In this document: in pieces, positions 19,921 to 45,331 of the stretch
How positions within the stretch are numbered: the stretch's first letter is position 1
Layout of the letters: the number at the start of each line of letters is the position of its first letter
NCBI GenBank assembly: GCA_902489795.1
Contig: CABUBU010000003.1
Location: 8,484-72,483, forward strand
Length of the DNA: 64,000 nucleotides
Direction of reading: 5' to 3'
Origin: an uncultured Azospirillum sp.
GTDB taxonomy: Bacteria; Pseudomonadota; Alphaproteobacteria; RF32; CAG-239
Translations under genes and position numbers: made by a program
Notes under the pieces: model-generated
Told to the model about the DNA's origin: nothing
What the model saw: the letters and a program-made list of their open reading frames with translations, nothing else
The model's database searches: none

Positions 19921-19994
19921 CCGTCCGGCGGCAGGCGCCGTCGGAAGCCCGTTGATCCGTTGCCGGTGCTTGTCAACCGCGGCAAGCTTTTTTG

Positions 19995-20023
19995 TTGCAT
20001 AAAAAAAACTTTTCCTGTAGAAT
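19995..20023 (+). promoter_or_regulatory. Candidate sigma70 promoter of the virB3-virB11 operon
   Basis: TTGCAT (19995-20000), exactly 17 nt of spacer, then TAGAAT (20018-20023). A GAAGGA RBS and the ATG at 20049 follow. Confidence 0.6.
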
Positions 20024-20048
20024 CATAAAAAACGAAGGATGGATTGAA

Positions 20049-24387: not shown

Positions 24388-24389
24388 CG

Positions 24390-29200: not shown

Positions 29201-30056
29201 TACGATCGACGTTGCTTCTTCCAAGGTGGATTTGGCGCAAACCAGCGGACAATATCTCGTCAGTCCCGTGGATTCCCCGAAAAGGCCGGTCTGCGGCGAC
29301 ATCTCCGTCAGGGGAACGCTTTATTACACGGTTACTGATCTGGAGCTGGACGAAAGCGTCCGCGCCGGCACCCAGAAAACGCCGGCCGTCGTTTCGCCTT
29401 CCGAACTGGGAACGCTTTTTGCCTACAGCGGCCGCAAGCTGAAGTTTAACGATGCGGCCTACAACGTCTATGAACGCATGCTGGAACTGGAAGACAAGGC
29501 AAACGGCGACAATTTCAAATACGAAGTGCGTGACAACGTATATCAGAAGTCGATGTACGCCAACAATCAGATCGGGAATTTCCTGCATTTCGTGGACAAG
29601 GAAAACAGCATTCGCAAAAACATGGACGAGCTGCAGCTGAGCATTGACGATGCCAGGGAAACGATCAGGGAAATGCTGTCCGAGATGGGATTCAAGCTTG
29701 CCGACGACTTTAATCTTGCCAACGACGAGGAATACGCTTATATTCGCAATAAGCTGATTGAATACAAGAGCAACCTGGTCGGTCTGGCGGCTTCGGATGT
29801 TTCGACCGTCAACAACGCCAACCCGGTTGTCAAAGAGCGCTACGACAAGGTGGAAAATACGCGGGCGGCGCTGGTTCAGGATCAGGAGGCGCTGGTCAAT
29901 CTGACAAATTCGACCGCTGCCGGCAGTTCTCTGAGCGAAGCGATCATCAGCGAAAAGGCCAATCAGGAAGTGATGGAAAAGTCGCAGCAGGAAGCTCTCG
30001 ACGCCATCCGCAAGGAGATCGACAACTATGAGAAGCCGCTTTGCACCGCGTATTAA
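26268..30056 (+). CDS. Large (~1,260 aa) secreted Ala/Glu-rich helical protein, unknown function
   Basis: A GGGGG RBS lies 6 nt upstream of the ATG at 26268. Alternative starts are at 26262 and 26271, and the ORF opens at 26229. The signal peptide is MMRKNSKFYLGILLVSGMLGLSSPAHSQ. No domain was recognised. Confidence 0.7.
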   Translation: MMRKNSKFYLGILLVSGMLGLSSPAHSQLVGGVSFDFGGDAAAAVTPVFEQIQTAADEAIKYAKEKVTKLKASIASYFTKRKNAAEKVPGTKQFAEGTSVDIYDPAAVQAAINELFLQYPSSDQRVNRFYEKEAAEFYYDTMIEIQTASKKLEAQLNSLRTEIDNFSKDAIAPSGGNAGSMSSSDENGNYYNLYLAHKKFNDVLKVTEEVMALYSQYYVARAIYRKTILPAPYQEESAEGEGKKSAASRYFSSKMAFAQFVSGSTASAAAEEEEAEDTETKRSSYTEVNFAVPEAPEAKSLMAGSEKELADLGVISDAQKSLNEALKAHNTIRLLPTYRNIFRQYELFKQMHEKAAQAVASSDQCVVQYLGRRYDRPEKVWYGTMAAPADPTDYDSRTGLSGWAVAAYQVANADKTAGLDTDSFATLDLGMEADSGDLASLESVSEKAAAMDSASALANPSKEEEFSAAAREVELVTWQIGAQAAKILAEDQYSDSPVYGKAAHPYPLWQDQKSFYNQYIDGKYENMKTYIRNLDLTSVALKIAQLINDDRPDGTAKSAAQRGLQRLAGYISENGSGGSAASGLVKEKMTAVAKVDSAREAALKPYLASKEKLSAELDKVAAKISELNDRISLVDSEAASGNAKAESSYSNIRLMNNRGTTDDSVLYEMARRDFAEGSRQMTENMATATQLRAEVKTYEGQRDELNKKIDSANEKIASIEEDYLNRKSVVEAEYDAKLESVAAGAKAPTLAALVDKLDIDGFGLSNVISDADSLVSDAKGYAVKLIDKARQDMYNLGDGLYETRNNGVVVKRHKELIDDLKNMPREQFIRSAVSVVSGGASSSVASMLSGALTSAITGQICGKVSCKAADSEYFVGLPAKPRDFVAPKAPEFEHYPSPRDIVHFDATDYKNIRKTNDGIVAKSSILEYGGEIPGIWRQMLADDAFVEKGLNLNSLLEQGGESKYLMRGTLYPCRIGNYTIDVASSKVDLAQTSGQYLVSPVDSPKRPVCGDISVRGTLYYTVTDLELDESVRAGTQKTPAVVSPSELGTLFAYSGRKLKFNDAAYNVYERMLELEDKANGDNFKYEVRDNVYQKSMYANNQIGNFLHFVDKENSIRKNMDELQLSIDDARETIREMLSEMGFKLADDFNLANDEEYAYIRNKLIEYKSNLVGLAASDVSTVNNANPVVKERYDKVENTRAALVQDQEALVNLTNSTAAGSSLSEAIISEKANQEVMEKSQQEALDAIRKEIDNYEKPLCTAY

Positions 30057-30068: not shown

Positions 30069-30827
30069 ATGAACAAATTCAGTAAAATTCTTGAAGGCAG
30101 CAAAATTCTGGCCATTACCGACAAAAACGGCAGGGAATATCGTTTTGTCGGCGACAGGGAACGGGAAAAGGTCAGTGCCAAGATGATGTATTATCTGTGG
30201 CTTTCCCGTTTCTTTATCGTCACTTCCGCCGCTTCGCTGCTTTTGTTTCTGTCCGCGTCTCTTTCTTTGTTCAACCTGGCGCCGCAGGTGACGGTCGAGC
30301 CTTTTCTGATCATCGACCAGAGTTCTTCGGACGAGATCGTCCGCTATGAACCGATTGCCCACGACATGGCTTCCAAAAAAATGATGATGGAAACCTTCGT
30401 CCGCCAATATGTCATGTATCGCAACACCATCATCAACGACGAGCGCGAAATGATGGTGCGCTGGTATGCCGGCGGCATTCTGAATTATCTTTCCGCGCCG
30501 CAGGTATTTGACGAATTTGCCAAATATCGGGAAGGTATCTGGAAAGACATCACCGACAACCAGACCAGCCAGGAAGTGGAAATCATTTCGATCGGCCGCG
30601 TGGGCGGCGAAAAAAGCCCGGTCTGGAAGGTGGATTTCAAAACTTACGAAGTTTCCGCCCGCCGCCGCAATACGGAAACCGGCGCGTTGTTTCTCCGGGT
30701 TCACTACTGGACCGCTTCGGTCACTTCCTATTTCATTCCCGAACGCGCCTTTATGGGCCGTCGTCTGCTTAATCCTCTCGGTTTTACGGTTACCAGATAT
30801 TCGCAAAGCGAAGTCGAATTCTTGTAA
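30069..30827 (+). CDS. virB8: VirB8-family protein (paralog a)
   Basis: It has an N-terminal TM helix followed by an NTF2-like periplasmic domain ending in the family-typical RLLNPLGFTVTRYSQSE. Confidence 0.85.
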   Translation: MNKFSKILEGSKILAITDKNGREYRFVGDREREKVSAKMMYYLWLSRFFIVTSAASLLLFLSASLSLFNLAPQVTVEPFLIIDQSSSDEIVRYEPIAHDMASKKMMMETFVRQYVMYRNTIINDEREMMVRWYAGGILNYLSAPQVFDEFAKYREGIWKDITDNQTSQEVEIISIGRVGGEKSPVWKVDFKTYEVSARRRNTETGALFLRVHYWTASVTSYFIPERAFMGRRLLNPLGFTVTRYSQSEVEFL

Positions 30828-31149: not shown

Positions 31150-31878
31150 ATGGTACAGCAGTTGGGGGTAAACAATCAAAATCAGCGCTTGCTGGCCGGA
31201 CGCGGCCGGCGGCCGGAATCGCCGGCGTCGTCTCAGGACGCCTTTGTCGCCAACGTCGCCGAAAAACGCTATTTGTGGACGGCGCGCGCGTTTGCCATCA
31301 TTACCGCGGTCAGCCTTTGCTGCAACATCGTGCTGTTGCTGGCGATCGCACAGGTAATACCGTTGTACCGGGTGGAACCGTTTTTGCTCACTTTTCAAAA
31401 CAAGCAGGAGCAGGTTTATAACATTCAGCCGGTCAACCGCGACATGGAGGACGAAAAGGAAATTACCGAAGTGTTCGTCCGCGAATATGTGCTGCTGCGC
31501 AGTTCTTTTAATCGCGACATTCCGGAAGTGGAAGCCCGCTGGATGCCGGGCGGCATGATTGAGGAAATGTCCAGTCCCGCAGTTTACAAAGATTTTGTGG
31601 AAAATACGGCCAACCGCGCCCTGGAACTGATCCGCACCCGGCAGATGATCCGCGATGTGCGGATTATGACGGTTAACGAGCTGGGGGCGGGGATCTGGCA
31701 GGTGGAATATGAAACGCGCGACATGTATCCGGATTCCAAAGCACCGGAGATCAATTACTGGACGGCCAGCCTGAAAGTCGGCTACCGCAGCAAGAGAGTG
31801 AAATTCAAGGGAAGATTGAAAAACCCGGTCGGCTTTACGGTGTACCAATACTCGCTGACTTACAACAAAGTAAAATAA
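31150..31878 (+). CDS. virB8: VirB8-family protein (paralog b)
   Basis: It has a TM helix (FAIITAVSLCCNIVLLLAIAQVI) and a periplasmic domain colinear with paralog a (VEPFLLTFQ..., FVREYVLLR..., ending RLKNPVGFTVYQYSLTYNK). Confidence 0.85.
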   Translation: MVQQLGVNNQNQRLLAGRGRRPESPASSQDAFVANVAEKRYLWTARAFAIITAVSLCCNIVLLLAIAQVIPLYRVEPFLLTFQNKQEQVYNIQPVNRDMEDEKEITEVFVREYVLLRSSFNRDIPEVEARWMPGGMIEEMSSPAVYKDFVENTANRALELIRTRQMIRDVRIMTVNELGAGIWQVEYETRDMYPDSKAPEINYWTASLKVGYRSKRVKFKGRLKNPVGFTVYQYSLTYNKVK

Positions 31879-31892: not shown

Positions 31893-33521
31893 ATGTTATC
31901 AAAGTCTGTAAAAATAAGTGTATTAAGTTTGTTTGCCGTCGCGTTTGCCGCGGAAGCCTTCGCTCAGGCCACGATTAACAGCATGGATCAGAATGCGGAC
32001 CAGTCGCAGGGACAGTACCAGCCGATGGACATGGGCTATGCCGGCTTCAATTCTCTCGGCATGATGCAGAGCGCCTGGCTTGATCCGTTGCAGAACCTCG
32101 GCGAAGGGCAGAGCAAACCGGCTTATTCGAAATATTACTGGTCGCCGGATCTGGTTTTGCCGCTGCGTCTGCGTGAAGGCATGATTACTTTGTTGAACTT
32201 TCCTGAATGGGAAATGATTGAGGACATTTACATCGGTGACAACGCGACTTTTGACGGACAGATTTCGGGGCCGAACACCTTGTTGCTTTATCCCCGCAAA
32301 GGCGCCAACGTCGGCGTTGATACCAACATTATCGTTTTCGGCCGTTCGGGCAATCGTTATGTGTTTTATGTCCGTAGCGAGGGCGTCAATACCGAGCGTC
32401 TGACCAACGCGATCGTTGACATCGACGTGATCGACGGCGCCGGCGGGGCGGGGACGCTCGGTTCCGGCGGTTCGTCTTCCGGCCGCGTCAATGCCAGTAA
32501 ATATTACGGCAACGGCGGCAAGTCGGTAGATTCCACCTTTACCAAAAGATTTCAGAAAAACGACTGGATCAAAAGCATTCCGCTGGATCCGACACAGTTC
32601 CGTTTTGACGTTGAAGTTTACGTTCCCAACCCGGATGACGTTGTCATTGCGCCGGAACGCGTATGGCGTGACGACATTTTCACTTATATCGATCTGGGCG
32701 AAAAGGCGCTCAACATGACCCAGCGCCCGATCGTCACCCTGATTGTCGAGCGGGTTGAGGTTCCGGTCGGATTCCGCACCAAAGGGCCGAACAACCGCCT
32801 GATCATCGTCGAGGCGATCGGCGACATGGTTCTGCGCAACGGTAAGCGTATCGTCTGCCTGAAACTTCGCAGATCCGATGAGGTCGGATTGGATAATATC
32901 AGTTACGCCGACGACATTACCGACAAGGAATGGGACGTTCCGGGCGCCCTGCCGGAAGGCAAACGCGGAAAAGCCGGCTCGGCCAGCTATCCGGACGGTT
33001 TCGGCAGCAATTATGTGGAAGGACAGGTTGATGTCAACGCCGGTTCATCCGAGATGATTGTTCCCGAATACAGCGGCGGCAATAACGGCGAAGGGGTTAC
33101 CATCCGCTACAAGGCCGGCGGCGCCTTCGGTGCCGGCAACGGTCAGGGCGGCGACTTCGATTACTCCAAGATGCGCCGGATCAAAAATACGCAGGAATTT
33201 GATGCCGCGGCCAGCAATTTGGCCAGCCAGTATCGTTACGGATCGGGATTTGCCGACGGAGGCTCCAACATTTCGATTGAGCTCGGCACCGATGCCAATG
33301 TGGACAACCTGGAAAATTTATGGGACAACCTGTCCTCTAAATATTCCAAAATTTTGAAGAACTATGACCCGTTCTTCTCAGTTGACGCGCCGGCGGACGG
33401 ACAGGGCAAAGAGCTTTTCCATCTGCGCATCGGACCGGTCAAAACCTTGGACGAAGGTGACAGCGTGTGCAGCAAACTGGGCAGAAACGGCGTCTTTTGC
33501 AGCGTAGTCAGGACCCAATGA
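31893..33521 (+). CDS. virB9: VirB9/CagX-family outer-membrane core protein with a C-terminal SPOR-like domain
   Basis: It has a signal peptide. The VirB9 N-domain reads PLRLREGMITLLNFPEWEMIEDIYIGDNATF...TNIIVFGRSGNRYVFYV. The VirB9 C-domain reads IAPERVWRDDIFTYIDLGE...RLIIVEAIGDMVLRNGKRIVCLK. A Gly-rich linker follows, then ISIELGTDANVDNLENLWDNLSSKY...LFHLRIGPVKTLDEGDSVCSKLGRNGVFCSVV, which fits the SPOR pattern. Confidence 0.85.
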   Translation: MLSKSVKISVLSLFAVAFAAEAFAQATINSMDQNADQSQGQYQPMDMGYAGFNSLGMMQSAWLDPLQNLGEGQSKPAYSKYYWSPDLVLPLRLREGMITLLNFPEWEMIEDIYIGDNATFDGQISGPNTLLLYPRKGANVGVDTNIIVFGRSGNRYVFYVRSEGVNTERLTNAIVDIDVIDGAGGAGTLGSGGSSSGRVNASKYYGNGGKSVDSTFTKRFQKNDWIKSIPLDPTQFRFDVEVYVPNPDDVVIAPERVWRDDIFTYIDLGEKALNMTQRPIVTLIVERVEVPVGFRTKGPNNRLIIVEAIGDMVLRNGKRIVCLKLRRSDEVGLDNISYADDITDKEWDVPGALPEGKRGKAGSASYPDGFGSNYVEGQVDVNAGSSEMIVPEYSGGNNGEGVTIRYKAGGAFGAGNGQGGDFDYSKMRRIKNTQEFDAAASNLASQYRYGSGFADGGSNISIELGTDANVDNLENLWDNLSSKYSKILKNYDPFFSVDAPADGQGKELFHLRIGPVKTLDEGDSVCSKLGRNGVFCSVVRTQ

Positions 33522-36500
33522 GCAAAGAAGTTTTAACACACTCTGAAAGCTATATCAAAAAAACCAACCGCATAATTCTTGCGGTTGGTATTACTTCTTT
33601 CGTCGTTTTCCTTTTCGGTTTGTATCTTCTGTTTTCAAGCGACGAGCCGATTGACGAATACGAAGAACCGGTTTTCACCGACAACGATGACGCCTTAAAT
33701 GTCGTTGACAACACTCCCGTGCAGGAAAGCATAGAGTTCAGCACGGTGGGCAATACGGAAGTTCCGCTGACGGCGACCCCGAACCCGGTTCCGCTGGGGC
33801 AGGTGGTGCTCGGCACTGATGCCAAAAACGTCCTGACGCTCGGCACCAACGGCAAAACCTCGGTGATGATCATATCGGTTCAGTTGGCGGAGGCGCCCTT
33901 TGACGGTTTTGAGTTCAACGACAACTGCAGCGGCAAGCTTCTGCGCGGCAAGGAAACCTGCGACGTTACCATGAGCTGGACTCCGGTTGTGGCCGGAAAC
34001 GTTCAAAACAACTTTATCGTTTCCTGGCACGAAAGCAATGTTTCCCAAAACAGCGCCAAGGCGGAAAAAGTGCCGGTTTACGGCAATGCCGTCAATAAGG
34101 AAGACTGCAATTTCTGCGAAACCGTTCCGGGCGCGTCCGGTAGCGGAACGGCAACTGCCCCGACGGCAAAGAAAATGCAGCGGGCAATCGTCGGTCCGGG
34201 CGGCGCTGTAATCGGTTATGCCGATGAGGACGGCTATGTCTATGACGAAAACGGCAATGTCATCGGCCGGGTGAATGAAAACGGTCTGGCGGTGGACGGG
34301 GAAGGCAACATTATCGGCGTTGCCAACAACCGCAAACTGGTTTACGACGACAACAACAACGTAATCGGCTATGTCAATCCCGACGGTACGATGGTTGACG
34401 TCGACGGCAACGTTACCGGCCGCATGCTGCCCGACGGAACGGTGGTTGACAATGACGGTAACGTGGTCGGCAAAGCGGTGGATATGGGCTATGTTTATGA
34501 CGAAAACGGCAACATTATCGGCCGGGTAATGCCCGACGGCACAGTAGTCGATCTGAACGGCAACGTGATCGGCCGCGTCAACGAAAAAGGCGAAGTGGTT
34601 GATGCCGACGGCAACGTTATCGGTCATGTTACCAAGTCCGGCCAGGTGGCGGTAGACGGCGACGGCAACATCATCGGCGTGGTTATGCCCGACGGCAGCG
34701 TGGTTGACGCCAACGGCGAAGTGGTCGGCCGAGTGGACGAAAACGGCAACGTTATCGCGGACAAAAATCTGGATGCCAAGAGCGTCCGCCGTCGGCTGGC
34801 CTATGATAAAGACGGCAACGTAATGGGCTATGTCGACGAAAAGGGAAACGTCGTCGACTTTGACGGCAACACCATCGGCCGCAGCCGTCCGGACGGCACT
34901 TTGGTCAATCTTCGCGGCGAGGAAATCGGTTCGGCCGGAACGGCCGGCAACCTGCTGGCTTATGACAAAGACGGCAAGGTCATGGGGTATGTTGACGACG
35001 ACGGAAGCGTCATCGGCGCCGACGGCAAAAAAATCGGCGAACTGCTGCCCGACGGCAGTCTGGTCGACGGACAGGGCAACGTGATCGGCCGGGTTGACAA
35101 CAGCGGCCGCCGGCTGGCTTACGACAAAGACGGCAACATTATCGGCTATATTGACGAGAACGGAAACGTCGTCGATTTTGCCGGCAACGTCATCGGCAAG
35201 GTTCAGCCCGACGGCAGCATCGTCGATGCCGACGGCAATGTGATCGGCAAGGCCGGTCCGGCTTATCAACGTCTGGCTTATGACAAGGACGGAAACATTA
35301 TCGGTTATATTGACGAAAACGGCAACGTGGTCGATTTTGACGGCAACGTCATCGGCAAAATGCTGGAAGACGGCACCATCGTTGACGAAAACGGCAATAT
35401 TATCGGCCGGGCGGGAACGGTTAACCGCAAATTGGCCTATGACAAGGACGGCAACGTCATCGGCTATGTCGACGAAAACGGCAACGTGGTGGATTTCAAC
35501 GGCAACGTCATCGGCAAAATGCTGCCCGACGGCACCATTGTCGACCTGGACGGCAATCCGATCGGCGAAGTTGCCGGTTTTTCCCAGATCGTGCTCGACA
35601 AGTTCGGCAAAATCAGCGGCTATGTCGGCAAAAACGGCGAAGTTTACGACAAGGACGGCAACATTGTCGGTTATGTCGACGAGAACGGCAATGTGGTCAA
35701 CAGCACGCAGACGATCCTCGGGCGTCTGATTCAGGAACAGATGATTCCGGTTACCCCGCAGGGGGAAATTCTCGGCAAGGTCAACTCAAACGGAACGGTT
35801 GAAAACGACCGCAAACAAATCGTCGGCCGCATTCTCTCCAACGGACTGGTGAAAAACCCCTCCGGCTCCAAAATCGTCGCCCGGCTTGTTCGCGGCGGGT
35901 TGGTTGTCGGTCTGGGCTGCAAAAACATCGGTTATCTGGAAAAAGACGGCGTCATCCGCAAGTCTAACGAAGATACCGGATACAAGGTCAACGCCGACGG
36001 CGTGGTGGTGGACGAAAGCGGCGCCTACGTCGGCGAAGTGGTCACCCCCGGTCCGGTGTTTGACAATACCTGCACCATGATCGGCGAGGTGGATACCGAC
36101 GGCATTGTCCGCGACGGCGGCGGTTCCTATGTCGGCTGCGTTAATCCGGACGGTACCGTTTTGGACGAGAAGGGCGAGATCGTGGGCGGCGTTTCCCGTT
36201 CGGGCATAGCGCTTTCTTATGACGGCAATTTCCTGGGAACGGTCAACTCCAACGGACTGGTATTTTCTCCGCAGGGAGAAGCGGTCGGCTGCGTTGGCAC
36301 CTACGGCGACGTGTTTGACAAGAAAGGCGGCTATGTCGGTCGTGTGCTCGAAAATACCTATGCGTATGATCTGGAAGGAAATTTTCTCAATATGGTCAAC
36401 GAAAGCGGGCGGGTTTCGATCAAAGGCCAGTCGGCGGGAAAATTATTGGCTCACAATGTTCTGGTTGACGAAAACAATAAAATCATCGGCGTGGCAATGC

Positions 36501-37585
36501 CGGAAAAAACGGCGGTGCTGAACCCTTCCGGCAAGCTGATCGGTCATTTGTTTCCCGACGGACACGTCTATGACGCCAAAGGCGTATCAATGGGCAAAAT
36601 GTACAGTGACGGCATGAGCTTTTACAACCATGTGCCGGGCAATCCAGCAGCTTCCGGGCTGATTGCCGATTTTGACGGCAATATCGTTGGCCAGACCGGC
36701 TACAACGGCGAAGTCGTCAACCGTTTCGGCGAAAGACTCGGCAGGGTGGATGCCAAAGGTGTCTTCTTTGACGCAAACGGCGAATACAAGGGGGCGGTGC
36801 TCAAACGCGGCGCGGCCATCGGCTATGACGGTGCGTTCCTCGGCTACAGCCTGACCGACGGCCGGGTGGTGAATTTTGACGGCAAAACGGTCGGCCGCAG
36901 TTCTTCCGACGGCAAGGTGCTGAATTCGGATCTGGAAGTGGTCGGAGAGGTTATCCCCGAAAACATCGTCATTGACATCTGGGGCGCCTACAAGGGGCGG
37001 GTCAATTCTCTAGGCGACGTAATCGACCTTAAAAACAATAACGTAACCGCCATTTTGCCGGGTGGTTCGACCGACAAGAACCTGAGTCTGCTCAAACGCG
37101 GCGCGGTCATTGACTTCGGCGGCAAGGTGATCGGCACGGTCATGCCCGACGGCAGTGTAATTGACGTCTTGAACATCAATATTGGCCGGGTTTTGTCCGA
37201 CGGCAGCGTGATCAACAATTCAGGTAAGCTGATCGGCGAAGTAATTGACGGCGACATCGTCATCGACGACGCGGACAAAGTGGTCGGCAGCGTCAACTTT
37301 GCCGGCATTGTCACCGGCCGCAGCGGCGAAGTGATCGGCCGCAGCCTGTCTTCCGATCTGGCGGTGGACAATAACGATGCCGTTCTGGGACGGATTTATA
37401 AAATCGGTACCGCCATTCTCGGCAATGACGGCCAGTATGCCGGACGCCTGCGTTATGACGGCAGCGTCATCGGCCGCGACGGCAAAATCATCGGCTACCT
37501 GAAAAGCAACGGTTCGTTTGTCAATCTGGATAAAAAAGTTGCCGGCTACGCTTTACAGGAAGTGGCTAAAAATCGGAGGAACTAG
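33518..37585 (+). CDS. Membrane-anchored giant short-repeat protein (1,355 aa)
   Basis: It has an ATGA overlap with the virB9 stop. An N-terminal TM helix (IILAVGITSFVVFLFGLYLLF) is followed by an Ig/ASH-like segment (PNPVPLGQVVLGTDAKNVLTLGTNGKTSVMIISV...CDVTMSWTPVVAGNV). Then come dozens of ~13-residue units centred on D-x-D/N-G-N-V/I-I-G. Confidence 0.85.
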   Translation: MSKEVLTHSESYIKKTNRIILAVGITSFVVFLFGLYLLFSSDEPIDEYEEPVFTDNDDALNVVDNTPVQESIEFSTVGNTEVPLTATPNPVPLGQVVLGTDAKNVLTLGTNGKTSVMIISVQLAEAPFDGFEFNDNCSGKLLRGKETCDVTMSWTPVVAGNVQNNFIVSWHESNVSQNSAKAEKVPVYGNAVNKEDCNFCETVPGASGSGTATAPTAKKMQRAIVGPGGAVIGYADEDGYVYDENGNVIGRVNENGLAVDGEGNIIGVANNRKLVYDDNNNVIGYVNPDGTMVDVDGNVTGRMLPDGTVVDNDGNVVGKAVDMGYVYDENGNIIGRVMPDGTVVDLNGNVIGRVNEKGEVVDADGNVIGHVTKSGQVAVDGDGNIIGVVMPDGSVVDANGEVVGRVDENGNVIADKNLDAKSVRRRLAYDKDGNVMGYVDEKGNVVDFDGNTIGRSRPDGTLVNLRGEEIGSAGTAGNLLAYDKDGKVMGYVDDDGSVIGADGKKIGELLPDGSLVDGQGNVIGRVDNSGRRLAYDKDGNIIGYIDENGNVVDFAGNVIGKVQPDGSIVDADGNVIGKAGPAYQRLAYDKDGNIIGYIDENGNVVDFDGNVIGKMLEDGTIVDENGNIIGRAGTVNRKLAYDKDGNVIGYVDENGNVVDFNGNVIGKMLPDGTIVDLDGNPIGEVAGFSQIVLDKFGKISGYVGKNGEVYDKDGNIVGYVDENGNVVNSTQTILGRLIQEQMIPVTPQGEILGKVNSNGTVENDRKQIVGRILSNGLVKNPSGSKIVARLVRGGLVVGLGCKNIGYLEKDGVIRKSNEDTGYKVNADGVVVDESGAYVGEVVTPGPVFDNTCTMIGEVDTDGIVRDGGGSYVGCVNPDGTVLDEKGEIVGGVSRSGIALSYDGNFLGTVNSNGLVFSPQGEAVGCVGTYGDVFDKKGGYVGRVLENTYAYDLEGNFLNMVNESGRVSIKGQSAGKLLAHNVLVDENNKIIGVAMPEKTAVLNPSGKLIGHLFPDGHVYDAKGVSMGKMYSDGMSFYNHVPGNPAASGLIADFDGNIVGQTGYNGEVVNRFGERLGRVDAKGVFFDANGEYKGAVLKRGAAIGYDGAFLGYSLTDGRVVNFDGKTVGRSSSDGKVLNSDLEVVGEVIPENIVIDIWGAYKGRVNSLGDVIDLKNNNVTAILPGGSTDKNLSLLKRGAVIDFGGKVIGTVMPDGSVIDVLNINIGRVLSDGSVINNSGKLIGEVIDGDIVIDDADKVVGSVNFAGIVTGRSGEVIGRSLSSDLAVDNNDAVLGRIYKIGTAILGNDGQYAGRLRYDGSVIGRDGKIIGYLKSNGSFVNLDKKVAGYALQEVAKNRRN

Positions 37586-37587
37586 CA

Positions 37588-40500
37588 TTGAAACTTAAGT
37601 TGGGCAAAATCTTGACGTTATCAGTGAAAACCGCAGCGGCAGTCGGCTGTCTGGCTTTTAGCGTTTCCGTTGCTTCGGCTCAGGAAATCACCGCCATTGA
37701 CTTTAACGGCGACCTAATCGGCAAAGTAATCCCCGATGGCAAGGTCGTCAGCTTTGAAAACCAGCTGATCGGCAACATTACGGCCGACAGTCTGATCGTC
37801 AATTTTGAAGGCAACCTGATCGGCGGCGTGGTGCCGAAAGGGATTGCCATCGGCAACGACAACCGTTTGCTCGGCAAGGTGAACAATGACGGTACCGTGC
37901 GTCTGGCCACCGGCAAAATAGTCGGCAAGGTGCTGCCCAACGGTTTGGTCGTCGATGACCGCTTTTCGGTTTTGGGTGCGGTGCTGTTTCCCGGTTTGGT
38001 TTATTCCGACAGCGGCGAAACCGTCGGCCGGCTGACCGGTGACGGCTTGTATTCCAATCTGCAGGGACAGAACATCGGCTTTGTTTCCCCCGACGGTTAT
38101 GCTTACCGCCGGGTCGGTAACGATTATGTGATCGACGGCCGGCTGATTTCCTCCAAAATGGTGATTGACGCAGGGGGCAAGTTTATCGGCAGCATTGCTC
38201 CGGGCGGCAAAGTGACGGATTTTGAGGGCAAGGCGATCGGTCTGATCAAAGCCAACGGTTTTGCCTACGATAATCAGGATAAGATTATCGGCCGCATCGT
38301 CAAATCGGGCTATGCTTTCGATAACGGCGGCAAATATATCGGTTTTGTAACTTACAACGGCGAGGTCGTCGCCAAAAACAAGGTGATCGGACGCCTGCTG
38401 ATTGACGGTACCATTGCCGATGCCAAAGGCGAAGTTATCGGCTATATGGCGGACATCGCATCGACGGTGACGGACGCCGCCGGCAAATATGTCGGTCGCA
38501 TTATGCCGGAAGGACGGATTGCCAAAGCGCGCAATTTTGTCGGCACTATGGGGCCGCGGGGACTGGTTTTCGGCGCCGACGGGGTCGAAAATGGCCGGTT
38601 GGCGGTAACCGGACCGGTGTTTGACTATCGCGGCACCTTAAAGGGACACGCCTTAAGAAACGGGCAGGTAATTCTGCTTGGCGGCACGCCGGTAGGTACC
38701 GTTTACGGCAGCCGCGCTTCCGACTATAACGGCCGCGGCATCGGCATGACTTTTGAAACCCGTCTGGTCGTCGATTCCTTAAACCGGGCGCTGGGTGTTA
38801 ACGGCATCGGCTCCGCCTATATCGACGGAGAAGAAAAGAAATTTCTGTCGCCTTTCGGTTATGTTTATAATGCGGACGGCGGCATCGACGGCAACCTGCT
38901 GCCGCTGGGCGGAATCTATAATTTGAGCGGCAAGACGGTCGCTTTTGTGCATCCGAACGGCGAAATGGTCAATAACAACGCGATAATCAGCGGACGGCTG
39001 ACGCAATACGGCTACGGCGTTGATGAAAAAAACCTGATTCTCGGTAAAAATATCGATGTCGGCTATGCCGTTGATGATCGGGGAAACAGTCTGGGCATTC
39101 TGGCGGACGGCAATATGCTGCTCGACAAGTCGTTGAAGACCGTCGGCAAAATTTTGCCCGACGACGAAGTCGTTTCCGACCTGAATAACCCGAATGCCAT
39201 GATGCCGGTTGTCGGCAAAGCGCGTGCCCGCAGCCTGGCGCTTGGTTTTCAGGGACGTTTTATCGGTTATGTGGACAGTAGCGGAACGGTTCGCGACACG
39301 GGCGCTTCCGTCGTCGGCAAAGCCGGTGCGGGAGACGTTGTTTTTGACAACGGTGGCATTGTTGTAGGCGGCACCGTTTCTTATATGCCGGTGATTGATG
39401 ATCAATGTGAGTTTGTCGGAGTGACGGCGGCGCAGGGCGAAGTCCGCAACTACCGCGAAGTCAATATGGGACGTCTTTTGCCCAACGGACAGGTTTTTTC
39501 AGTCAACAATACGATTATCGGTCATGCGGTAATACCGGGTGTGGTGATTGACTTTAACGGCAATATGGTAGGCACTGTTTCTGCCAACGGTAAGGTGCTG
39601 AATTACGCCAACCAGAACCTCGGCTGCCTCAACCGCCGCGGTCAGCTTTTGAACGGCAAAGGTGCGCAGACTGGTAAACGGGTGGAAGTGGCACCGGTGA
39701 TGAATTTCAACAATGTGATTACCGGTCGCTCAACGCTCGACGGTACCGTAATTAACGCTCAAAACAGTGTCATCGGTTATATTCGTCCGGACGATTCTGT
39801 CAGTTCCAAAACCGGGCTGCCGACCGGCATTTTGTTCAAATACCGTTTTGCTTTCGGCAATGACAACAAGCTGATCGGCACTGTCAACGACAAAGCGGAA
39901 GTGATCAACGGTCGCGGCGAAAAGAGCGGTATGGTCGATTTCGACGGCAATGTCGTCATCGGCGGCGAAAAGGCGGGATATGCCCTTTATGACATGTATA
40001 TTTACGACAACAATGATATGGTCAGCGGCTATATTACCGCCGACGGACAGGTGCTGTCGCTGAGCAATCAGAATCTTGGCGCCCTGACCAGAGGTTTTCT
40101 GGTCAACAAGAAAGGCAAAGCGATCGGTCGCGGCAACCGTGATTTCCATATCCGTGACAATTTGAACGCCATTCTCGGCGAACTGAGGCTTGACGGTCGG
40201 GTTCTGAGTGCGGAAAACGAGCTGGTCGGCACCTTGGGGGCTTCCGGCGACATCATTTCCGCCGCCGGCGAGGTGATTGCCCGCGCCCGACCGCTGCAGT
40301 TTTACGAAGCGGTGAAAAGACAGCCAATTTATGACAAGGACGGCAACATTATCGGTTATGTTTCGCCCCGCTTACAGGCGGTGGACGCCAAGGGCAGGGT
40401 GATCGGCCGCATCAGCGCCGATGAGCAGCAGCTTGCCATTGCTGCCGATGGCAGGGTTCTGGGGCATATTGACGCCAACGGCAACGTACTTGACAAGGAC

Positions 40501-42588
40501 GGTAAGGTTGTTGGCAAACTTCTTCCTGATGGAAGTATTGCAGCCATCTCGTCCGTCATTGGCCAAGTTGATGAAAAAGAGCGAACGCTTGCATTTGATG
40601 CATCTGGAAACCTCTTGGGTTATGTCGATGACAATGGTAATGTTGTTGATAGCAAGGGAAATATTGTAGGCAAGGTTAACGAAAAGAACGAGGTTGTTGA
40701 TCTTAGCGGAAATGTGGTAGGCAAAGCAGATCCTTCAAAGAAAGGAAAAATTGCTCGTGATAAATCCGGAAATATTATCGGTTATGCAGATGAAAGCGGA
40801 AATGTGTTTGGCAAAGACGGTAAGATCATCGGTACGGTCAGTGCTGACGGCAGCGTCATTGAAAAAGGTGCACAGATCATAGGTATGGCCGGAGAAAAGC
40901 GCAAACTGGTTTATGACAAAAACAACAAAGTTATCGGTTATGTCGACGCCAAAGGAAAAGTGCTTGATTTTAACGGCAATGTTGTCGGTGAAGCGGTTGA
41001 AGGCGGGGAAATTGTTGACGCCCGCGGCAATGTCATCGGTCAACTGAACAAAGACGGTTCGGCCATCAGTCTGGACGGTTCGGTGATCGGCAATACCAAA
41101 TTGAACTGGTATGAGAAGCCGCAGCCCGCTCAGCCGGTGGAGTTGCCGGAAGTCGGCGCGCGAGAGGTTGCCGACGTCGGTCAGTTCAAACGTTCGCTGA
41201 ACATTGCGTTGACGCCGGACGGCGAATATCTGGGCGATATTCTGGAAGACGGCAATGTCGTTGACAAAAAGGGAACGGTTATCGGCAAATTGCTGCCGGA
41301 CGGTTTGATCGTAGACGGCGAAGGCTCGCTGATCGGTATTGAAGAAGCGGCCAAAAAAGCCGATACCGGCGAAATGTTCGTTCCGGCCGGAACTTTCGGC
41401 CAGGGCGGCGCGTACGGCACCGGTACCGGCGGCGGCAACCTCGGTCCCGGCGGCGGTTTTGGTCCGGGCGAGCGTTATGATCCGCAGCGGGCGGCGGCTT
41501 TGCAGACGGCGCAAAACGAGCGCCGGCAGGGAATGTACGTCGGCAAAATCAGTTCCAGCATCCGCAAGGAGGCGTTTGACGGCTACCAGAAAGACTGGCA
41601 GGAACAGGGCATTGACAAGGTTATTTCTTCCTGGCGGGTGGACATGAGCGAAATGATTTTGGCCGACAAGCCGATTCCGGCTGTTATTGCCCGTTCCATC
41701 GATACGCAGAACCCGGTGCCGATTACGGCGTTTGTTGAGCGCAACGTCTATGCCGAAGACGGCAGGAACATCGTCATTCCGGCCGGCAGCCGGCTGATGG
41801 GCGAACTCGGCGGCACTGCCGGCGGCGGTGGTACCGAAACCGCTTCGGAATCCGCGCGCATTACCATTGTCTGGCAGCGGCTGATTCGTCCCGACGGCGT
41901 ATTGTTTACCTTCCAGGGCGAAACCGGTGACGCGCAGGGACGCGGCGGCGCGCTGGGTTATGTTGACCAGCAGCTTGGCAAGAAATACGGCATGCCGCTG
42001 ATTACCACGCTTTTAACCAGCGCAACCAGCTATATGATGGCGACCGATGAAGAAGAAAGCACCATGGATTCGGAAACGTCCCGTCAACAGGCGGCCAATG
42101 ACGCGCGTCAGAATTTCATTGACCAGATGAACCAGATTTTTGAAATGATCCTGTCCGACAAGACCAACATCCGCGCGCTGACCTATGTTCCGGCCGGTAC
42201 CCGTATCATCGTCTATCCGAAAGTCGACCTGTGGCTGAGAACGCTGGAGCGTGATGCCGATGCCTCGACCAACATGAAGAAGAAAGATGTGCTGATCGAC
42301 GATAAGGAAGCACAGGATCGTATTGCCACGCAGGCGGCTGAACGTCGGATCAAACAGGCCGGCGGTGGTGGCGGCTCGGCTTCCTCTCAGGTCGTTTACG
42401 AATCTGAGAAAGCTGAAGTTCAGCCGGTTCTGCTGGAGGACAGCAGCGCCAAACAGTCTGGCCGCGCGCCGGCTTCGACGGTCGGTGCCACGCCTCCGCC
42501 TCCGCCGAGTATGGGCGGCGGTTCGTCTTCTTCGTCGTCTTCTTCTTCTTCTTCTTCATCAAGCAGCGGCGTACCGCAGTTGTTTTAA
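37588..42588 (+). CDS. virB10: VirB10/TrbI-family protein with a ~1,200-aa N-terminal short-repeat region and a poly-Ser tail
   Basis: It has a TTG start with a GGAGGA RBS and an N-terminal signal/anchor sequence. The same G-x-x-I-G short repeats run through about aa 30-1170, followed by a Gly-rich linker. The TrbI/VirB10 domain reads KPIPAVIARSIDTQNPVPITAFVERNVYAEDGRNIVIPAGSRLMGE...ARITIVWQRLIRPDGVLFTFQGETGDAQGRGGALGYVDQQLGKKYG. The C-terminus is GGGS(16)GVPQLF. Confidence 0.9.
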   Translation: MKLKLGKILTLSVKTAAAVGCLAFSVSVASAQEITAIDFNGDLIGKVIPDGKVVSFENQLIGNITADSLIVNFEGNLIGGVVPKGIAIGNDNRLLGKVNNDGTVRLATGKIVGKVLPNGLVVDDRFSVLGAVLFPGLVYSDSGETVGRLTGDGLYSNLQGQNIGFVSPDGYAYRRVGNDYVIDGRLISSKMVIDAGGKFIGSIAPGGKVTDFEGKAIGLIKANGFAYDNQDKIIGRIVKSGYAFDNGGKYIGFVTYNGEVVAKNKVIGRLLIDGTIADAKGEVIGYMADIASTVTDAAGKYVGRIMPEGRIAKARNFVGTMGPRGLVFGADGVENGRLAVTGPVFDYRGTLKGHALRNGQVILLGGTPVGTVYGSRASDYNGRGIGMTFETRLVVDSLNRALGVNGIGSAYIDGEEKKFLSPFGYVYNADGGIDGNLLPLGGIYNLSGKTVAFVHPNGEMVNNNAIISGRLTQYGYGVDEKNLILGKNIDVGYAVDDRGNSLGILADGNMLLDKSLKTVGKILPDDEVVSDLNNPNAMMPVVGKARARSLALGFQGRFIGYVDSSGTVRDTGASVVGKAGAGDVVFDNGGIVVGGTVSYMPVIDDQCEFVGVTAAQGEVRNYREVNMGRLLPNGQVFSVNNTIIGHAVIPGVVIDFNGNMVGTVSANGKVLNYANQNLGCLNRRGQLLNGKGAQTGKRVEVAPVMNFNNVITGRSTLDGTVINAQNSVIGYIRPDDSVSSKTGLPTGILFKYRFAFGNDNKLIGTVNDKAEVINGRGEKSGMVDFDGNVVIGGEKAGYALYDMYIYDNNDMVSGYITADGQVLSLSNQNLGALTRGFLVNKKGKAIGRGNRDFHIRDNLNAILGELRLDGRVLSAENELVGTLGASGDIISAAGEVIARARPLQFYEAVKRQPIYDKDGNIIGYVSPRLQAVDAKGRVIGRISADEQQLAIAADGRVLGHIDANGNVLDKDGKVVGKLLPDGSIAAISSVIGQVDEKERTLAFDASGNLLGYVDDNGNVVDSKGNIVGKVNEKNEVVDLSGNVVGKADPSKKGKIARDKSGNIIGYADESGNVFGKDGKIIGTVSADGSVIEKGAQIIGMAGEKRKLVYDKNNKVIGYVDAKGKVLDFNGNVVGEAVEGGEIVDARGNVIGQLNKDGSAISLDGSVIGNTKLNWYEKPQPAQPVELPEVGAREVADVGQFKRSLNIALTPDGEYLGDILEDGNVVDKKGTVIGKLLPDGLIVDGEGSLIGIEEAAKKADTGEMFVPAGTFGQGGAYGTGTGGGNLGPGGGFGPGERYDPQRAAALQTAQNERRQGMYVGKISSSIRKEAFDGYQKDWQEQGIDKVISSWRVDMSEMILADKPIPAVIARSIDTQNPVPITAFVERNVYAEDGRNIVIPAGSRLMGELGGTAGGGGTETASESARITIVWQRLIRPDGVLFTFQGETGDAQGRGGALGYVDQQLGKKYGMPLITTLLTSATSYMMATDEEESTMDSETSRQQAANDARQNFIDQMNQIFEMILSDKTNIRALTYVPAGTRIIVYPKVDLWLRTLERDADASTNMKKKDVLIDDKEAQDRIATQAAERRIKQAGGGGGSASSQVVYESEKAEVQPVLLEDSSAKQSGRAPASTVGATPPPPPSMGGGSSSSSSSSSSSSSSSGVPQLF

Positions 42589-42597: not shown

Positions 42598-43566
42598 ATG
42601 AGCTTTGAAGTATTGGAATCTGTTCTGCGACCGCTTTCGTACTGGTACAATCAGGACAATATCGAAGAAGTGGCAATCAACCGCGCCGGCCAGGTCTGGC
42701 TGCGCTTGCGCGGCAAACGCGCCTACCCCTGGGTGATGTACAAGGACGAAAAGCTGACGAAGGAATATCTGACCGATTTGCTTTATATTGTCGCCAACAC
42801 CTATGAAATTCCGTTTGATCCGGTTGCCGGCAGTCCGGTGGTTTATGCCAGCATTCCCGGCGAACACCGTTTTTCCGCCATTTGCGGCAAAAACGTGATG
42901 TATGACGAAGAAGATCTGACCGGCGGTATTGCGCTTACCATCCGCGTGCACAGTGACGACGTGGCTTTCGGCTTGGGCGACTACGGTTTAAAGCAGGGGG
43001 AAAAGCTTCATCAGATCAATCCGCTGAAAACGATCAAGGATCCGGAAGATCCTTATGAACGGCTGCTGCTCAGCATCAAGCGCGGCGATCATATTCTGGT
43101 CAGCGGTGCGACTTCTACCGGTAAAACGACGTTTTTGAACAACCTGCTGAAGATTTTGGATATTCATAAACGGATCATCACCATTGAAGATACGCGAGAA
43201 CTGCTGGTTCCGCATCCTAACCGCACCCATATCGTGATGTCGCGTACCGAACAGACAAACCAGTTTGACTATGCCAAAATTATCGACTTGGTGGTACGTT
43301 TTACGCCCGACGCGATTATCGGCGGCGAAATTTCCACCAGTAACGCCGGCGCGCTTTGGGAACTGATGGGATCCGGCCACGACAACTGTCTGGCCACCAT
43401 CCACGCGGAAAGTTCGACCGCCGCTTACGAGGCTTTTGTCGATCGTATTCTGCATACTTATCCGACCATGGATCGCAAGAAAACGATTGAGGAAATGCAC
43501 CATAAGCTGCGGGTCGTGCAAATCAACCGTGACGGCAACCTGCGCGCGGTAACGGAAGTTACTTAG
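42598..43566 (+). CDS. virB11: VirB11-family T4SS ATPase
   Basis: Walker A is GATSTGKTTFLN, followed by ITIEDTRELL and a His-box region GSGHDNCLATIHAESS. The protein is 322 aa with an AAGGAGG RBS. Confidence 0.95.
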   Translation: MSFEVLESVLRPLSYWYNQDNIEEVAINRAGQVWLRLRGKRAYPWVMYKDEKLTKEYLTDLLYIVANTYEIPFDPVAGSPVVYASIPGEHRFSAICGKNVMYDEEDLTGGIALTIRVHSDDVAFGLGDYGLKQGEKLHQINPLKTIKDPEDPYERLLLSIKRGDHILVSGATSTGKTTFLNNLLKILDIHKRIITIEDTRELLVPHPNRTHIVMSRTEQTNQFDYAKIIDLVVRFTPDAIIGGEISTSNAGALWELMGSGHDNCLATIHAESSTAAYEAFVDRILHTYPTMDRKKTIEEMHHKLRVVQINRDGNLRAVTEVT

Positions 43567-43592
43567 AGCGGGAATTTCCATGTTTTTTTATC

Positions 43593-43622
43593 AAAGCCGA
43601 AACCTTGGTTTTCGGCTTTTTT
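43593..43622 (+). terminator. Rho-independent terminator ending the T4SS operon
   Basis: aaagccgaaaacc-ttgg-ttttcggcttt is followed by a T run. Confidence 0.8.
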
Positions 43623-43668
43623 GTAACGGAAAAACCCTGCGCCGGGTGCATGGTTGAGGAGAGCTTAC

Positions 43669-43950
43669 TGCTTTTTTCCATTTCGCTCTTTGTCGTTTCC
43701 CTTTCCTTGCTTTCTGCCCTTCTTTTTTCCGCCCTTCCCACCTTTTCCGCTTTGCTCTCCCTCTTTTTCTTTTTCGTTTCCCTTTCCCTTTCACTTTCAC
43801 TTTCACTTTATCTTCTTTCTGCCCTTCTTTTTCCCGCTTTTCCCCCCTTTCCCGCTTTGCTCTCCCTCTTCCTGCTTTTTCTTTTTCGTTTCCCTTTCCT
43901 TGCTTTCTGCCCTTCTTTTTTCGCTCTTTTCATCTTTCCCGTTTTGCTCA
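43669..43950. repeat. Polypyrimidine (CT-rich) degenerate modular repeat tract, + strand
   Basis: Modules such as tttcccgctttgctctccctctt..ctttttcgtttccctttccttgctttctgcccttcttttttc recur two to three times. All six frames give low-complexity pseudo-ORFs. Confidence 0.75.
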
Positions 43951-44167
43951 TTGCGTATATAAAACTCCTTCGCCATTGTAAGAAAGACGATCCGGCAATT
44001 GTCTTAAAAAGCAAAGGCGTTTTTTGAATGTGTGTACTGTTTGCACATATGATGCGGATTCCGAAAATACCTTGTTTCTTCGTCCCGAAATATCGAAGAA
44101 AGGCGTTTTAGGGCAGACGTCGTCTGGAAATAGGAGCTATATTTAGGGAACGATGCCGACGGAAAGG
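43949..44167. repeat. Left arm of a perfect 219-bp inverted repeat (partner 46287-46505)
   Basis: A base-by-base comparison of 43949-44167 with the reverse complement of 46287-46505 showed no mismatch. Identity stops abruptly at 44168/46286. Confidence 0.9.
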
Positions 44168-44473
44168 AGTAGAAATTGTTAAGACCGAAGTTTGTCCGGA
44201 CATATTCATATGTTACGGGAGATACCACCTGAATATTCTGTAAGCTCAATAATGGGGTATCTCAAAGGTAAAAGCAGTCTTATGATATACGAAAGATGGG
44301 GAAATGCGAAGTTTCGATATAGAAACCGAGAGTTTGGGTGTAAAGGGCACTATGTCGATACCGGTGGAAAGAATACCCAAAAGATAGCCGAGTATATCCG
44401 AAATCAACTTAAAGAAAGCGCGGAGAAAAGTCAGTTGACTATGGATTTTGATCCGTTTACGGCAAGCCGGTAA
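44028..44473 (+). pseudogene. tnpA: IS200/IS605-family Y1 transposase (TnpA) pseudogene
   Basis: The sequence AHMMRIPKIPCFFVPKYRRKAF*GRRRLEIGAIFRERCRRKGVEIVKTEVCPD / (frameshift) HIHMLREIPPEYSVSSIMGYLKGKSSLMIYERWGNAKFRYRNREFGCKGHYVDTGGKNTQKIAEYIRNQLKE is colinear with Salmonella IS200 TnpA. It has an in-frame TAG at the conserved Tyr and a 1-nt deletion in the HUH region. Confidence 0.85.
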
Positions 44474-45331
44474 TAGTCGCCTTATCAGTCCCTCTTATGC
44501 CTTTAAGACGTTGCCGGCACCGTGAGGATTATATCCGTATACGAAAAACCGTGCGTTTTACACGGGAACCTTTTGCCGCGCATGATGCGAATGGATCGGC
44601 ACTGGCGTAATTATGTTCGACGGCCGGCAAACGATGGTGCAATTTTTCGTTTTTTCTCATTTCAGCTGCTTTTTGATCAAAAGACAAAACGGCTTTTCCT
44701 GCCGGGTAAGGCATGCGCTTAAAAACTTTTATAACAGTCTGCTTGTTTTGTGAGCAAAACCGGTTTTTTCTGCGGGCAGGAGGAAAACGTGCCGAAAAGC
44801 TTATTTTAAAATTGAAGGTTAGATGTTGTCGTTTTTAAAATAAAAGTTGTTATATTTATCAAGTTCTGTTTTTGCTTTAATTTAAAGAAAGCGGTATATA
44901 TCCTTGGTCGCAGAGGTGTGAGAAGAAATGCCGGGTACATATATCCCTGCATGTAGGGATTTTTGCCGTTCTTCAAATAGTTGTTGCTTTTGGCAAAATT
45001 ATTGTTTAACTTGAAAAACAGGCAGCAATGTTGCTGCTCAGCATCCGAGAGGATGCGGAGTCGTAGAAAGCTCTCGCATAACCGGTATTAGCGGATATCA
45101 TACCGTGAAACTGTCGGCCGCATTGTCCGTACAGTTTGTATATCCCCTGCCAAGCCAAGGCCGGGGAGCTTTAAGCAATGTCCAGAAACCCTCAGGTTTT
45201 AAAGGCTTAAGGGATCATAGTTATGCATGATTTTTCTACCTCTCCGACCACCTTCTGGTGGTTTTTGTTTTATTTGCGAACGAAAACGGAAAGGTGGTCA
45301 GATTTTTGGTAAAAAATTTGAGGAACAGACT

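Follow-up and report, generated by a model that had tools for sequence, protein, structure and literature searches.

What takes the place of VirB10 in a type IV secretion system (T4SS) in which virB9 and virB11 are separated by two giant repeat genes? VirB10 normally spans both membranes and passes the energy state of the inner-membrane ATPases to the outer-membrane gate. The question is raised by a 64,000-nucleotide stretch of DNA, here called the window, from an uncultured Azospirillum sp. (GenBank assembly GCA_902489795.1, contig CABUBU010000003.1, positions 8,484 to 72,483). Two plus-strand genes, A and B, sit there between virB9 and virB11, and repeats make up most of each. Gene A ("VirB10-N", 33518..37585) encodes 1,355 amino acids (aa) from a conserved ATG (142 kDa): a cytoplasmic tail, a transmembrane helix, an immunoglobulin (Ig)-like domain of the ASH class and ~66 hairpin repeats, with no TrbI domain. 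Gene B ("VirB10-C", 37588..42588) encodes 1,666 aa (mature ~172 kDa): a signal peptide, ~72 hairpin repeats, a Gly-rich segment, a TrbI barrel with its antenna and a disordered tail. The genes are tightly packed. A opens at 33518 with an ATG that shares bases with the virB9 stop (ATGA), the TAG of A (37583-37585) is followed two bases on by the TTG start of B (37588), a Shine-Dalgarno sequence (GGAGGA) lies ~8 nt 5' of that start, and virB11 begins 9 nt past the B stop. An earlier note on this DNA had described two adjacent, packed repeat genes in the virB9-virB11 interval, and the open reading frames (ORFs) are present as described. A and B together probably make up one hyper-expanded VirB10 that is encoded as two genes.

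The first step towards this answer is the identity of B, which is a genuine VirB10 by its TrbI hidden Markov model (HMM) match, its barrel fold with a predicted antenna and its position between virB9 and virB11. The TrbI/VirB10 β-barrel domain assigned by the earlier note (aa 1357-1550, 41656..42237, plus strand) scores 118.8 bits against Pfam TrbI PF03743 (3.5e-34; cut-off 35), and the fold agrees. In an AlphaFold2 model covering aa 881-1666, a two-helix antenna was found at aa 1461-1526 (41968-42165, plus strand), its helices spanning aa 1461-1487 and 1498-1526 (581-607 and 618-646 in the numbering of the modelled part). Foldseek matched this model at probability 1.0 to core-complex and ComB10 structures (6gyb_C, 7o3j_A, 6x6s_AY, 2bhv and 3jqo; target-normalised TM-scores 0.50-0.68), and at the same probability to Xanthomonas VirB10, TrwE, CagY, ComB10, TraF and DotG. 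The nearest annotated plasmid VirB10 proteins are alphaproteobacterial and at most 34% identical. Comparison across species was based on 80 loci, the best 80 of 332 species-representative genomes with TrbI-domain relatives. The Gly-rich segment ahead of the barrel (FVPAGTFGQGGAYG...GPGERYDP; aa 1264-1299, 41377..41484, plus strand) is predicted to be disordered; previously taken for a linker, it is indeed present, yet conserved across orthologs. Behind the barrel lies a disordered C-terminal extension of ~115 aa with poly-Pro and poly-Ser (42238..42585, plus strand), in which the Ser run counts 15 residues (42523-42567) and not the 16 first reported. Of 74 B orthologs, 73 terminate in P(Q/A)LF; the single-chain giants introduced below mostly do so in LF or MF. 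Conservation of an aromatic residue at the C-terminus suggests that it serves as a signal for docking or sorting.

The N-terminus of B is of a different kind from that of a canonical VirB10. Residues 1-31 (37588..37680, plus strand) form a predicted cleavable Sec signal peptide, with cleavage between ...VASA and QEITAIDF, and the (-3, -1) rule is followed in 75/75 orthologs. B orthologs open with ~30 poorly conserved, moderately hydrophobic residues, followed by a small-x-small site and a near-invariant QEITAIDFNGDLIGKVIPDGKVV; the residue at +1 after the predicted cleavage site is Q in 62 of 75. A varying pre-sequence ahead of an invariant mature N-terminus is characteristic of cleaved Sec signal peptides rather than bitopic anchors. 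The hydropathy of this segment is just 1.77, and there is no further transmembrane candidate in B. Where the earlier note had left the choice of "signal/anchor", the signal was retained and the anchor dropped. A lipoprotein signal was also considered, and was ruled out because the Cys varies among orthologs. The single bitopic chain that characterises VirB10 is thus not found in B; it is found in A and B jointly, or in single-chain relatives.

The anchor is found in A. A conserved cytoplasmic tail (MSKEvLTHSEsYIKKTNR) and a transmembrane helix at aa 19-39 are encoded at 33518..33634 on the plus strand (hydropathy 2.52; AlphaFold2 helix 8-39), and the tail motif (LTHSExYIKKTNR) is present in 66 ortholog loci. 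An acidic segment separates the helix from an ASH/HYDIN/PapD-like Ig domain with a conserved Cys pair (aa 89-164, 33782..34009, plus strand). Pfam ASH reaches 0.007 here, below threshold, and the domain was assigned by profile match; the Ig-region profile matches ASH-domain arrays such as P0200 (ASH 4e-209). AlphaFold2 models the Ig domain as β-strands with a low predicted local distance difference test (pLDDT) score. The remainder of A is an array of 17-aa hairpin repeats (aa 229-1340, 34202..37537, plus strand) with Bflower_2 in 13 stretches, Bflower, DUF3659 and RHS_repeat matches and a lag-17 signal, and its C-terminal end (AKNRRN) is conserved in 70 loci. The earlier description of A as a transmembrane anchor and an Ig-like segment followed by repeats holds, whereas the label "repeat-only paralog" does not, since the tail, helix and Ig domain are of VirB10 type.

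That type is seen in relatives which carry everything on one chain. P0091 is an ordinary single-chain VirB10 of 579 aa with the tail, transmembrane helix, ASH Ig domain and TrbI, the last 39% identical to that of the window. BLASTP aligned the A N-terminus with P0091 colinearly over tail, helix and Ig domain (E 3e-5), and the N-terminal profile of A matched it over 166 columns (hhalign probability 92.6%, E 4.5e-7). Gene order in the P0091 locus (L083) is syntenic too: a single VirB10 comes straight after VirB9, and VirB11, a transglycosylase, VirD4 and a relaxase-type helicase follow. In a second single-chain VirB10, P0099, Pfam places an ASH-class Ig domain ahead of TrbI. Further relatives came from a profile search in 1.84 billion representative proteins: in seven clusters of 2,152-2,363 aa the A N-terminal module occupies residues 1-240, and a TrbI motif lies close to the C-terminal end. 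In these sister-lineage giants ~1,600 aa of 17-aa hairpin repeats are placed between Ig and TrbI, and Bflower repeats with a C-terminal TrbI were confirmed by Pfam in 4/4 of those scanned. A first scan of metagenome contigs for further single-chain loci found none. The size series accordingly runs from ~580 aa on one chain through ~2,200-2,360 aa on one chain to A plus B, which sum to 2,515-3,450 aa and are split in 80/80 species loci of the window's clade. Given that the A module shares homology with VirB10 N-termini and that one-chain forms occur, the ancestral state would have been one protein doing both jobs. Single-chain giants in the sister lineage and a clade-wide split together lead to A and B as one hyper-expanded, divided VirB10.

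What fills the space between anchor and barrel is a single class of repeat. Autocorrelation gave a period of 17 aa (51 nt), with lag-17 self-identity of 0.19-0.32 against a background of 0.08 in all parts of A and B; in A there is also a 53-aa (159-nt) super-repeat, of which Tandem Repeats Finder located 4.9 copies at 34789-35566. The unit consensus is V-D-x-D-G-N-V-I-G-x-V-x-P/E-D-G-x-V, with turns at D-x-D-G and P-D-G. The motif read from the sequence by the earlier note, D-x-(D/N)-G-N-(V/I)-(I/V)-G, was right, whereas its unit of ~13 residues is replaced by one of 17 on the evidence of both autocorrelation and a DNA spacing in multiples of 51 nt. The repeat had also been thought to belong to no recognised named family. 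In Pfam it is Bflower_2 (A 2e-87, 288.8 bits; B 5e-69, 229.8 bits; cut-off 38), Bflower (A 145 bits, B 103.7 bits; cut-off 25) and DUF3659, all of the beta-flower class; A also matches RHS_repeat (5.7e-19). The beta-flower fold was found in the AlphaFold database, its petals being β-hairpins with a [DNEQ]xxG tip, and comprises Pfam PF21784, PF21785 and PF12396 in clan CL0395, with function unknown and no T4SS link described (Durairaj et al., 2023, PMC10584680). The repeats of both A and B have an HMM score above threshold and the [DNEQ]xxG hairpin-tip motif. Together the two proteins contain ~135 small β-hairpin repeats. An AlphaFold2 model of A aa 1-700 has one two-stranded hairpin for every 17 aa; in the clean repeats pLDDT is 80-93, falling about every 53 residues, and these dips suggest that the model is built from three-hairpin modules.

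Could the hairpins mainly bind peptidoglycan or glycans, as cell-wall-binding hairpin repeats do, and help the SPOR domain of VirB9 to hold the machine in the sacculus? The SPOR domain and the lack of any VirB1-like lytic transglycosylase seen in the window would fit, and Foldseek related the A model to the choline-binding proteins LytC and LytB, albeit weakly and not significantly (E 0.4-2.0). The sole significant structural match of the model is a local hairpin likeness to the Rhs core 8qja (E 2.6e-9, TM-score ~0.08), and no solved beta-flower was matched. A PDB sequence search with the clean repeats returned only weak Rhs/Tse15-type matches, and no significant similarity to a characterised cell-wall-binding domain was found. 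A mainly glycan-binding role is on this evidence quite improbable; it is compatible with a divided VirB10 and not exclusive of it.

A more direct challenge to a divided VirB10 concerns the standing of A. The Dot/Icm and Cag systems carry extra periplasmic ring proteins, and by that precedent A could be an independent accessory protein, with B an outer-membrane-only VirB10 from which direct coupling has been lost. The parallels would be DotF beside DotG in Dot/Icm (PMC6761968) and Cag3/CagM. B without a membrane anchor would suit such an arrangement, and so would the absence of any correlation between the lengths of A and B. An accessory origin is at odds with the homology of the A N-terminal module to VirB10 N-termini and with the existence of single-chain forms; A and B are moreover translationally coupled and always adjacent, and the ends that flank the split are the best-conserved parts of the arrays. 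It is considered unlikely.

Several results nevertheless weigh against A and B as one divided VirB10. The lengths of A and B do not co-vary across species (Spearman -0.01), which gives no sign of in-register pairing along the whole arrays. As an outgroup for the A N-terminal module P0099 was not significant in hhalign, so that the homology base of the A N-terminus consists of one clear outgroup, P0091, plus the single-chain giants. When tiles of A and B were mapped on the single-chain giants and on each other, the terminal modules alone placed uniquely; repeat tiles gravitated to the clean cassettes, and a resemblance between the start of B and that of the single-chain arrays was weakly indicated. 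By this mapping, simple fission and duplication with reciprocal domain loss would both fit the origin of the split. The global confidence of the AlphaFold2 models is low (predicted TM-score 0.27-0.32; 0.27 for the A model), and at this level closed beta-flowers and an open ribbon would both suit the hairpins.

A different proposal came from the earlier note, which saw in these genes a CagY-like solution, perhaps a surface-exposed or periplasm-spanning stalk or sheath. Taken in full, such a reading has repeats that recombine frequently in frame, tuning the T4SS or evading host immunity. In its favour, this giant VirB10 carries its repeat array ahead of TrbI, its host lives in the human and animal gut, and CagY and DotG provide precedents (PMC3585145, PMC6761968). 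Gut metagenome-assembled genomes (MAGs) from humans, mice, deer, rabbit and chicken supplied the 80 loci. A human-gut MAG, "Azospirillum sp. 51_20" (L007), stands closest to the window, and Candidatus Scatocola, a named relative, is placed in the Rhodospirillales. In the assembly collection 6,097 indexed blocks contain the window's exact VirB11, and the host species is very common in human-gut metagenomes.

Length variation across species is confined to one cassette per protein. In B, a fixed scaffold of degenerate hairpin repeats (aa 32-930, 37681..40377, plus strand) has an occupancy of 0.96-1.00 and an identity of 0.36-0.84, with no indels in ~73 species; over the first 150 residues of the mature protein identity is 0.74-0.84 across species, matching the TrbI level. 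It is followed by the length-variable cassette (aa ~931-1131, 40378..40980, plus strand; ortholog occupancy 0.01-0.40), which holds all indels between close relatives. The A cassette (aa ~400-650, 34715..35467, plus strand) consists of clean 53-aa super-repeats, and here only does ortholog occupancy drop to 0.28-0.69. The scaffolds, more than 80% of each array, are free of indels over ~70 species. For the ratio of non-synonymous to synonymous substitution rates (dN/dS), the A repeats gave 0.026-0.036, the B scaffold 0.062, the B cassette 0.06-0.14 and TrbI at most 0.011, the scaffolds as a whole spanning 0.026-0.064; by these ratios the repeat arrays are under strong purifying selection.

Alleles of related genomes were compared, as the earlier note had advised. 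Ten conspecific loci and L007, 11 genomes that stem from different samples, all have an A of 1,355 aa and a B of 1,557 aa despite 9 distinct B sequences, and only the lineage of the window differs. At ~95.6% DNA identity to the window, the conspecifics have three tail Ser fewer and are without an in-frame block of 106 aa (2 x 53), which lies at 40537..40875 on the plus strand (gaps at aa 984-1018 and 1026-1096). The sequence of this block is unique, so it is not an assembly duplication. Farther species are without 160-207 aa at the same hotspot in B. Judged from these alignments, array length changes in whole 53-aa modules and in frame, but slowly or rarely. The repeat copies are only 60-90% identical at the DNA level and would be a poor substrate for frequent recombination.

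The 106-aa difference and the larger ones at the same hotspot in related species are what a CagY-like stalk would produce. Such a stalk would not be expected to keep one length in 11 conspecific genomes with 9 distinct B sequences, to leave more than four fifths of each array without indels, or to show dN/dS values of 0.03-0.06 in its scaffolds and 0.06-0.14 in its cassette; moreover, topology places both arrays in the periplasm, not at the surface. Fixed length and purifying selection do not support recombining, surface-exposed, tuning repeats, and the proposal is very unlikely. What survives of it is the independent evolution of a giant VirB10 with an array unrelated to the CagY repeats, for which PDB and Pfam searches with the A and B repeats found no match.

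Repeat genes often break short-read assemblies and many database homologs are fragmentary, which raises the question of whether the pair could be an assembly artefact or two decaying pseudogenes. Loci L085-L089, which have a single-chain-type layout, are each interrupted, and none has an internal signal peptide: in L086, L087 and L089 scaffold gaps fall in the clean cassette (L002 is likewise gapped in its cassette), L085 contains a frameshift and L088 an in-frame stop. ORFs of this architecture are intact in 80 species and in 11 conspecific genomes, some on contigs of ~2.0 Mb. Together with strong purifying selection, a strong Shine-Dalgarno sequence and start-stop coupling, they leave this explanation a negligible probability.

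In L085 (9990-10010) a -1 frameshift lies near the repeat/TrbI boundary, and in L088 (6510-6525; coverage 3.8) an in-frame TGA stands at a Leu position of a repeat, also near that boundary. The two breaks fall within ~40 aa of each other, and neither downstream piece has a signal peptide. They could be low-coverage errors, or recoding and decay. Database matches of 550-680 aa with Bflower and TrbI were considered as shorter fusions and rejected, as locus analysis identified most of them as assembly-broken pieces of giant genes. In L001 (GCA_018263635.1; a 1.79-Mb contig, ~81% DNA identity) the locus is cut into short ORFs, including VirB8, VirB11 and both repeat genes. This pattern is typical of uncorrected long-read indel errors and explains some short "VirB10" entries in the databases.

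How would a VirB10 in two pieces be built? A has its N-terminus in the cytoplasm and a single N-terminal transmembrane helix, and the array of B precedes the TrbI barrel, which lies under the outer membrane in solved systems. Both arrays would by this topology be periplasmic, and could form a large, fixed-size scaffold beneath the outer-membrane core complex. Fully extended, 66-72 hairpins would exceed the usual periplasm, which makes lateral packing likelier than a straight stalk. The added mass would be ~4.4 MDa, on the assumption of 14 copies as in canonical systems. One short cassette in each protein would gain or lose 53-aa modules in frame, rarely. The best-conserved repeat segments are the start of mature B and the C-terminus of A, which are for that reason taken as the likely contact between the two. 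The halves probably re-associate non-covalently, most likely where the A C-terminus meets the first ~150 residues of mature B, and by this contact they would hypothetically regain the bridge from inner to outer membrane, which in canonical VirB10 is a single chain. A bolder and rather doubtful version holds that VirB10 is here a two-piece non-covalent connector in which three-hairpin "half-flower" modules at the A C-terminus and the B N-terminus complement each other. If this were true, coupling between inner and outer membrane could be assembled, broken or regulated, and the orphan beta-flower fold would for the first time have a role in the cell, as part of a T4SS found throughout a large clade of abundant, uncultured gut Alphaproteobacteria.

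The remaining genes of the locus define a P-type (VirB-like) T4SS and not type IVB. They run in the order three VirB2-like, VirB3, VirB4, further genes, two VirB8, VirB9, A, B and VirB11. The three VirB2-like pilin paralogs stand in a row at 18028-19868 (plus strand; 113, 121 and 336 aa), and the third has a long Gly/Thr-rich C-terminal extension behind its pilin-like hydrophobic core. Downstream follow VirB3 (19992-20339, plus strand) and VirB4 (20329-22761, plus strand). Between virB4 and virB8, four plus-strand ORFs of 516, 219, 413 and 1,275 aa (22837-30056) matched no Pfam or NCBIfam family; two of them resemble coiled coils, and the 1,275-aa protein may be another VirB6-like or a system-specific component. 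NCBIfam and PHROGs scans of the unannotated neighbour genes gave nothing useful. Two VirB8 paralogs (30069-30827 and 31150-31878, plus strand) lie directly upstream of virB9 (31893..33521, plus strand), whose 542-aa product belongs to the CagX family (Pfam CagX 3.8e-11) and ends in a SPOR (septal peptidoglycan-binding) domain that is only just over threshold (Pfam 1.7e-4). SPOR is unusual for VirB9, and hints that the machine is anchored in peptidoglycan. The virB11 ATPase gene (42598..43566, plus strand) matches Pfam T2SSE at 2e-21. The region past it, at 43567-46355, is variable among conspecific strains (compared with L007 and L090-L099), with differing small ORFs before a conserved helix-turn-helix gene, and a short inverted segment downstream of virB11 distinguishes the window from L007.

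On the minus strand, at least two large VirB6/TrbL-like proteins of 447 and 913 aa (59168-63271) were recognised by weak Pfam matches. Among these genes lies one for a 973-aa protein with an N-terminal M23 peptidase domain (53732-56653, minus strand), which could be the peptidoglycan-remodelling enzyme of the system in VirB1's stead. No VirB1-like lytic transglycosylase or VirB5 was seen in the 64-kb window, and no VirD4 or relaxase among its larger ORFs that were scanned. Two VirB8, at least two VirB6-like and several VirB2 genes, in a window where neither VirB5 nor VirB1 nor VirD4 was found, may recall the pattern of gene duplication in the rvh system of Rickettsiales. Next to the T4SS lies a cluster of R64 thin-pilus type that encodes a type IVb pilus (8010-15295, minus strand), with a secretin (13664-15295), a PilO-like protein (12362-13633), a T2SSE ATPase (9178-10842) and a T2SSF platform protein (8010-9134), all on the minus strand.

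Against canonical VirB10/TraF/TrwE proteins of P-type systems (350-450 aa), the window shares the TrbI barrel, the antenna helices and the virB9-virB11 position. Canonical VirB10 is one bitopic chain with a Pro-rich linker; here anchor and barrel are on separate polypeptides, and ~2,300 aa of hairpin repeats stand in place of the linker. Two systems have VirB10 proteins of comparable size. CagY of the Helicobacter pylori Cag T4SS (~1,900 aa) likewise has a very large repeat region before its VirB10 C-terminal domain; its structures 6x6s and 6odi are matched by the B C-terminal model (probability 1.0, target-normalised TM-score 0.66-0.68), and in both proteins in-frame length differences are restricted to a repeat cassette. 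CagY's middle repeat region recombines during infection and alters T4SS function (PMC3585145, PMC5954226). Unlike in CagY, the repeats here are 17-aa hairpins of the Bflower class, two genes are involved, with a predicted signal peptide on the TrbI half, and array length is stable within the population under purifying selection.

CagY had been named in the earlier note as the giant exception among VirB10 proteins, and DotG/IcmE is another, carrying pentapeptide repeats, ranging upward from ~1,000 aa and exceeding 1,500 aa in some Legionella, with a size that varies even within a species and high recombination (PMC6761968). DotG (Legionella/Coxiella, type IVB) resembles the present system in its TrbI C-terminus and in long, variable-number repeats between anchor and domain, and its structures 7muq and 9ngw were matched by the B model in Foldseek. 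Pentapeptide repeats gave no Pfam family match here, and motifs of the A(D/N)LXX type number 2 in A and 0 in B. DotG is moreover a single chain with its own membrane anchor, whereas here the protein is split, the repeat class differs and length is constant in 11 conspecifics.

As for the repeats themselves, the hairpin motif is shared with Rhs/YD-repeat proteins (RHS_repeat in A and the local match to 8qja). Unlike in Rhs proteins there is no cocoon-like global similarity, and neither the core-end DPxGL aspartyl-protease motif nor a toxin domain is present in A or B. In described beta-flowers the hairpins form a closed, shallow barrel of 4-, 5- or 6-fold symmetry (Durairaj et al., 2023, PMC10584680). 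Those described are small single domains of ~96 aa, some of them lipoproteins; here ~135 hairpins in two arrays belong to a T4SS core component, which places a repeat class of unknown function within a defined machine.

In the literature on T4SS of gut Alphaproteobacteria, giant VirB10 and DUF3659, no paper describing the present system was found. With a very common host species and TrbI relatives in 332 species genomes, the system may matter for gut ecology. An array of fixed length suggests that repeat expansion in VirB10 does not always serve variation or host exposure, and the split forms beside their single-chain relatives offer a natural comparison for the role of the covalent link in T4SS gating, in present models of which VirB10 is central. 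The present protein is the third, independent giant repeat-bearing VirB10 after CagY and DotG, and belongs to the family of neither.

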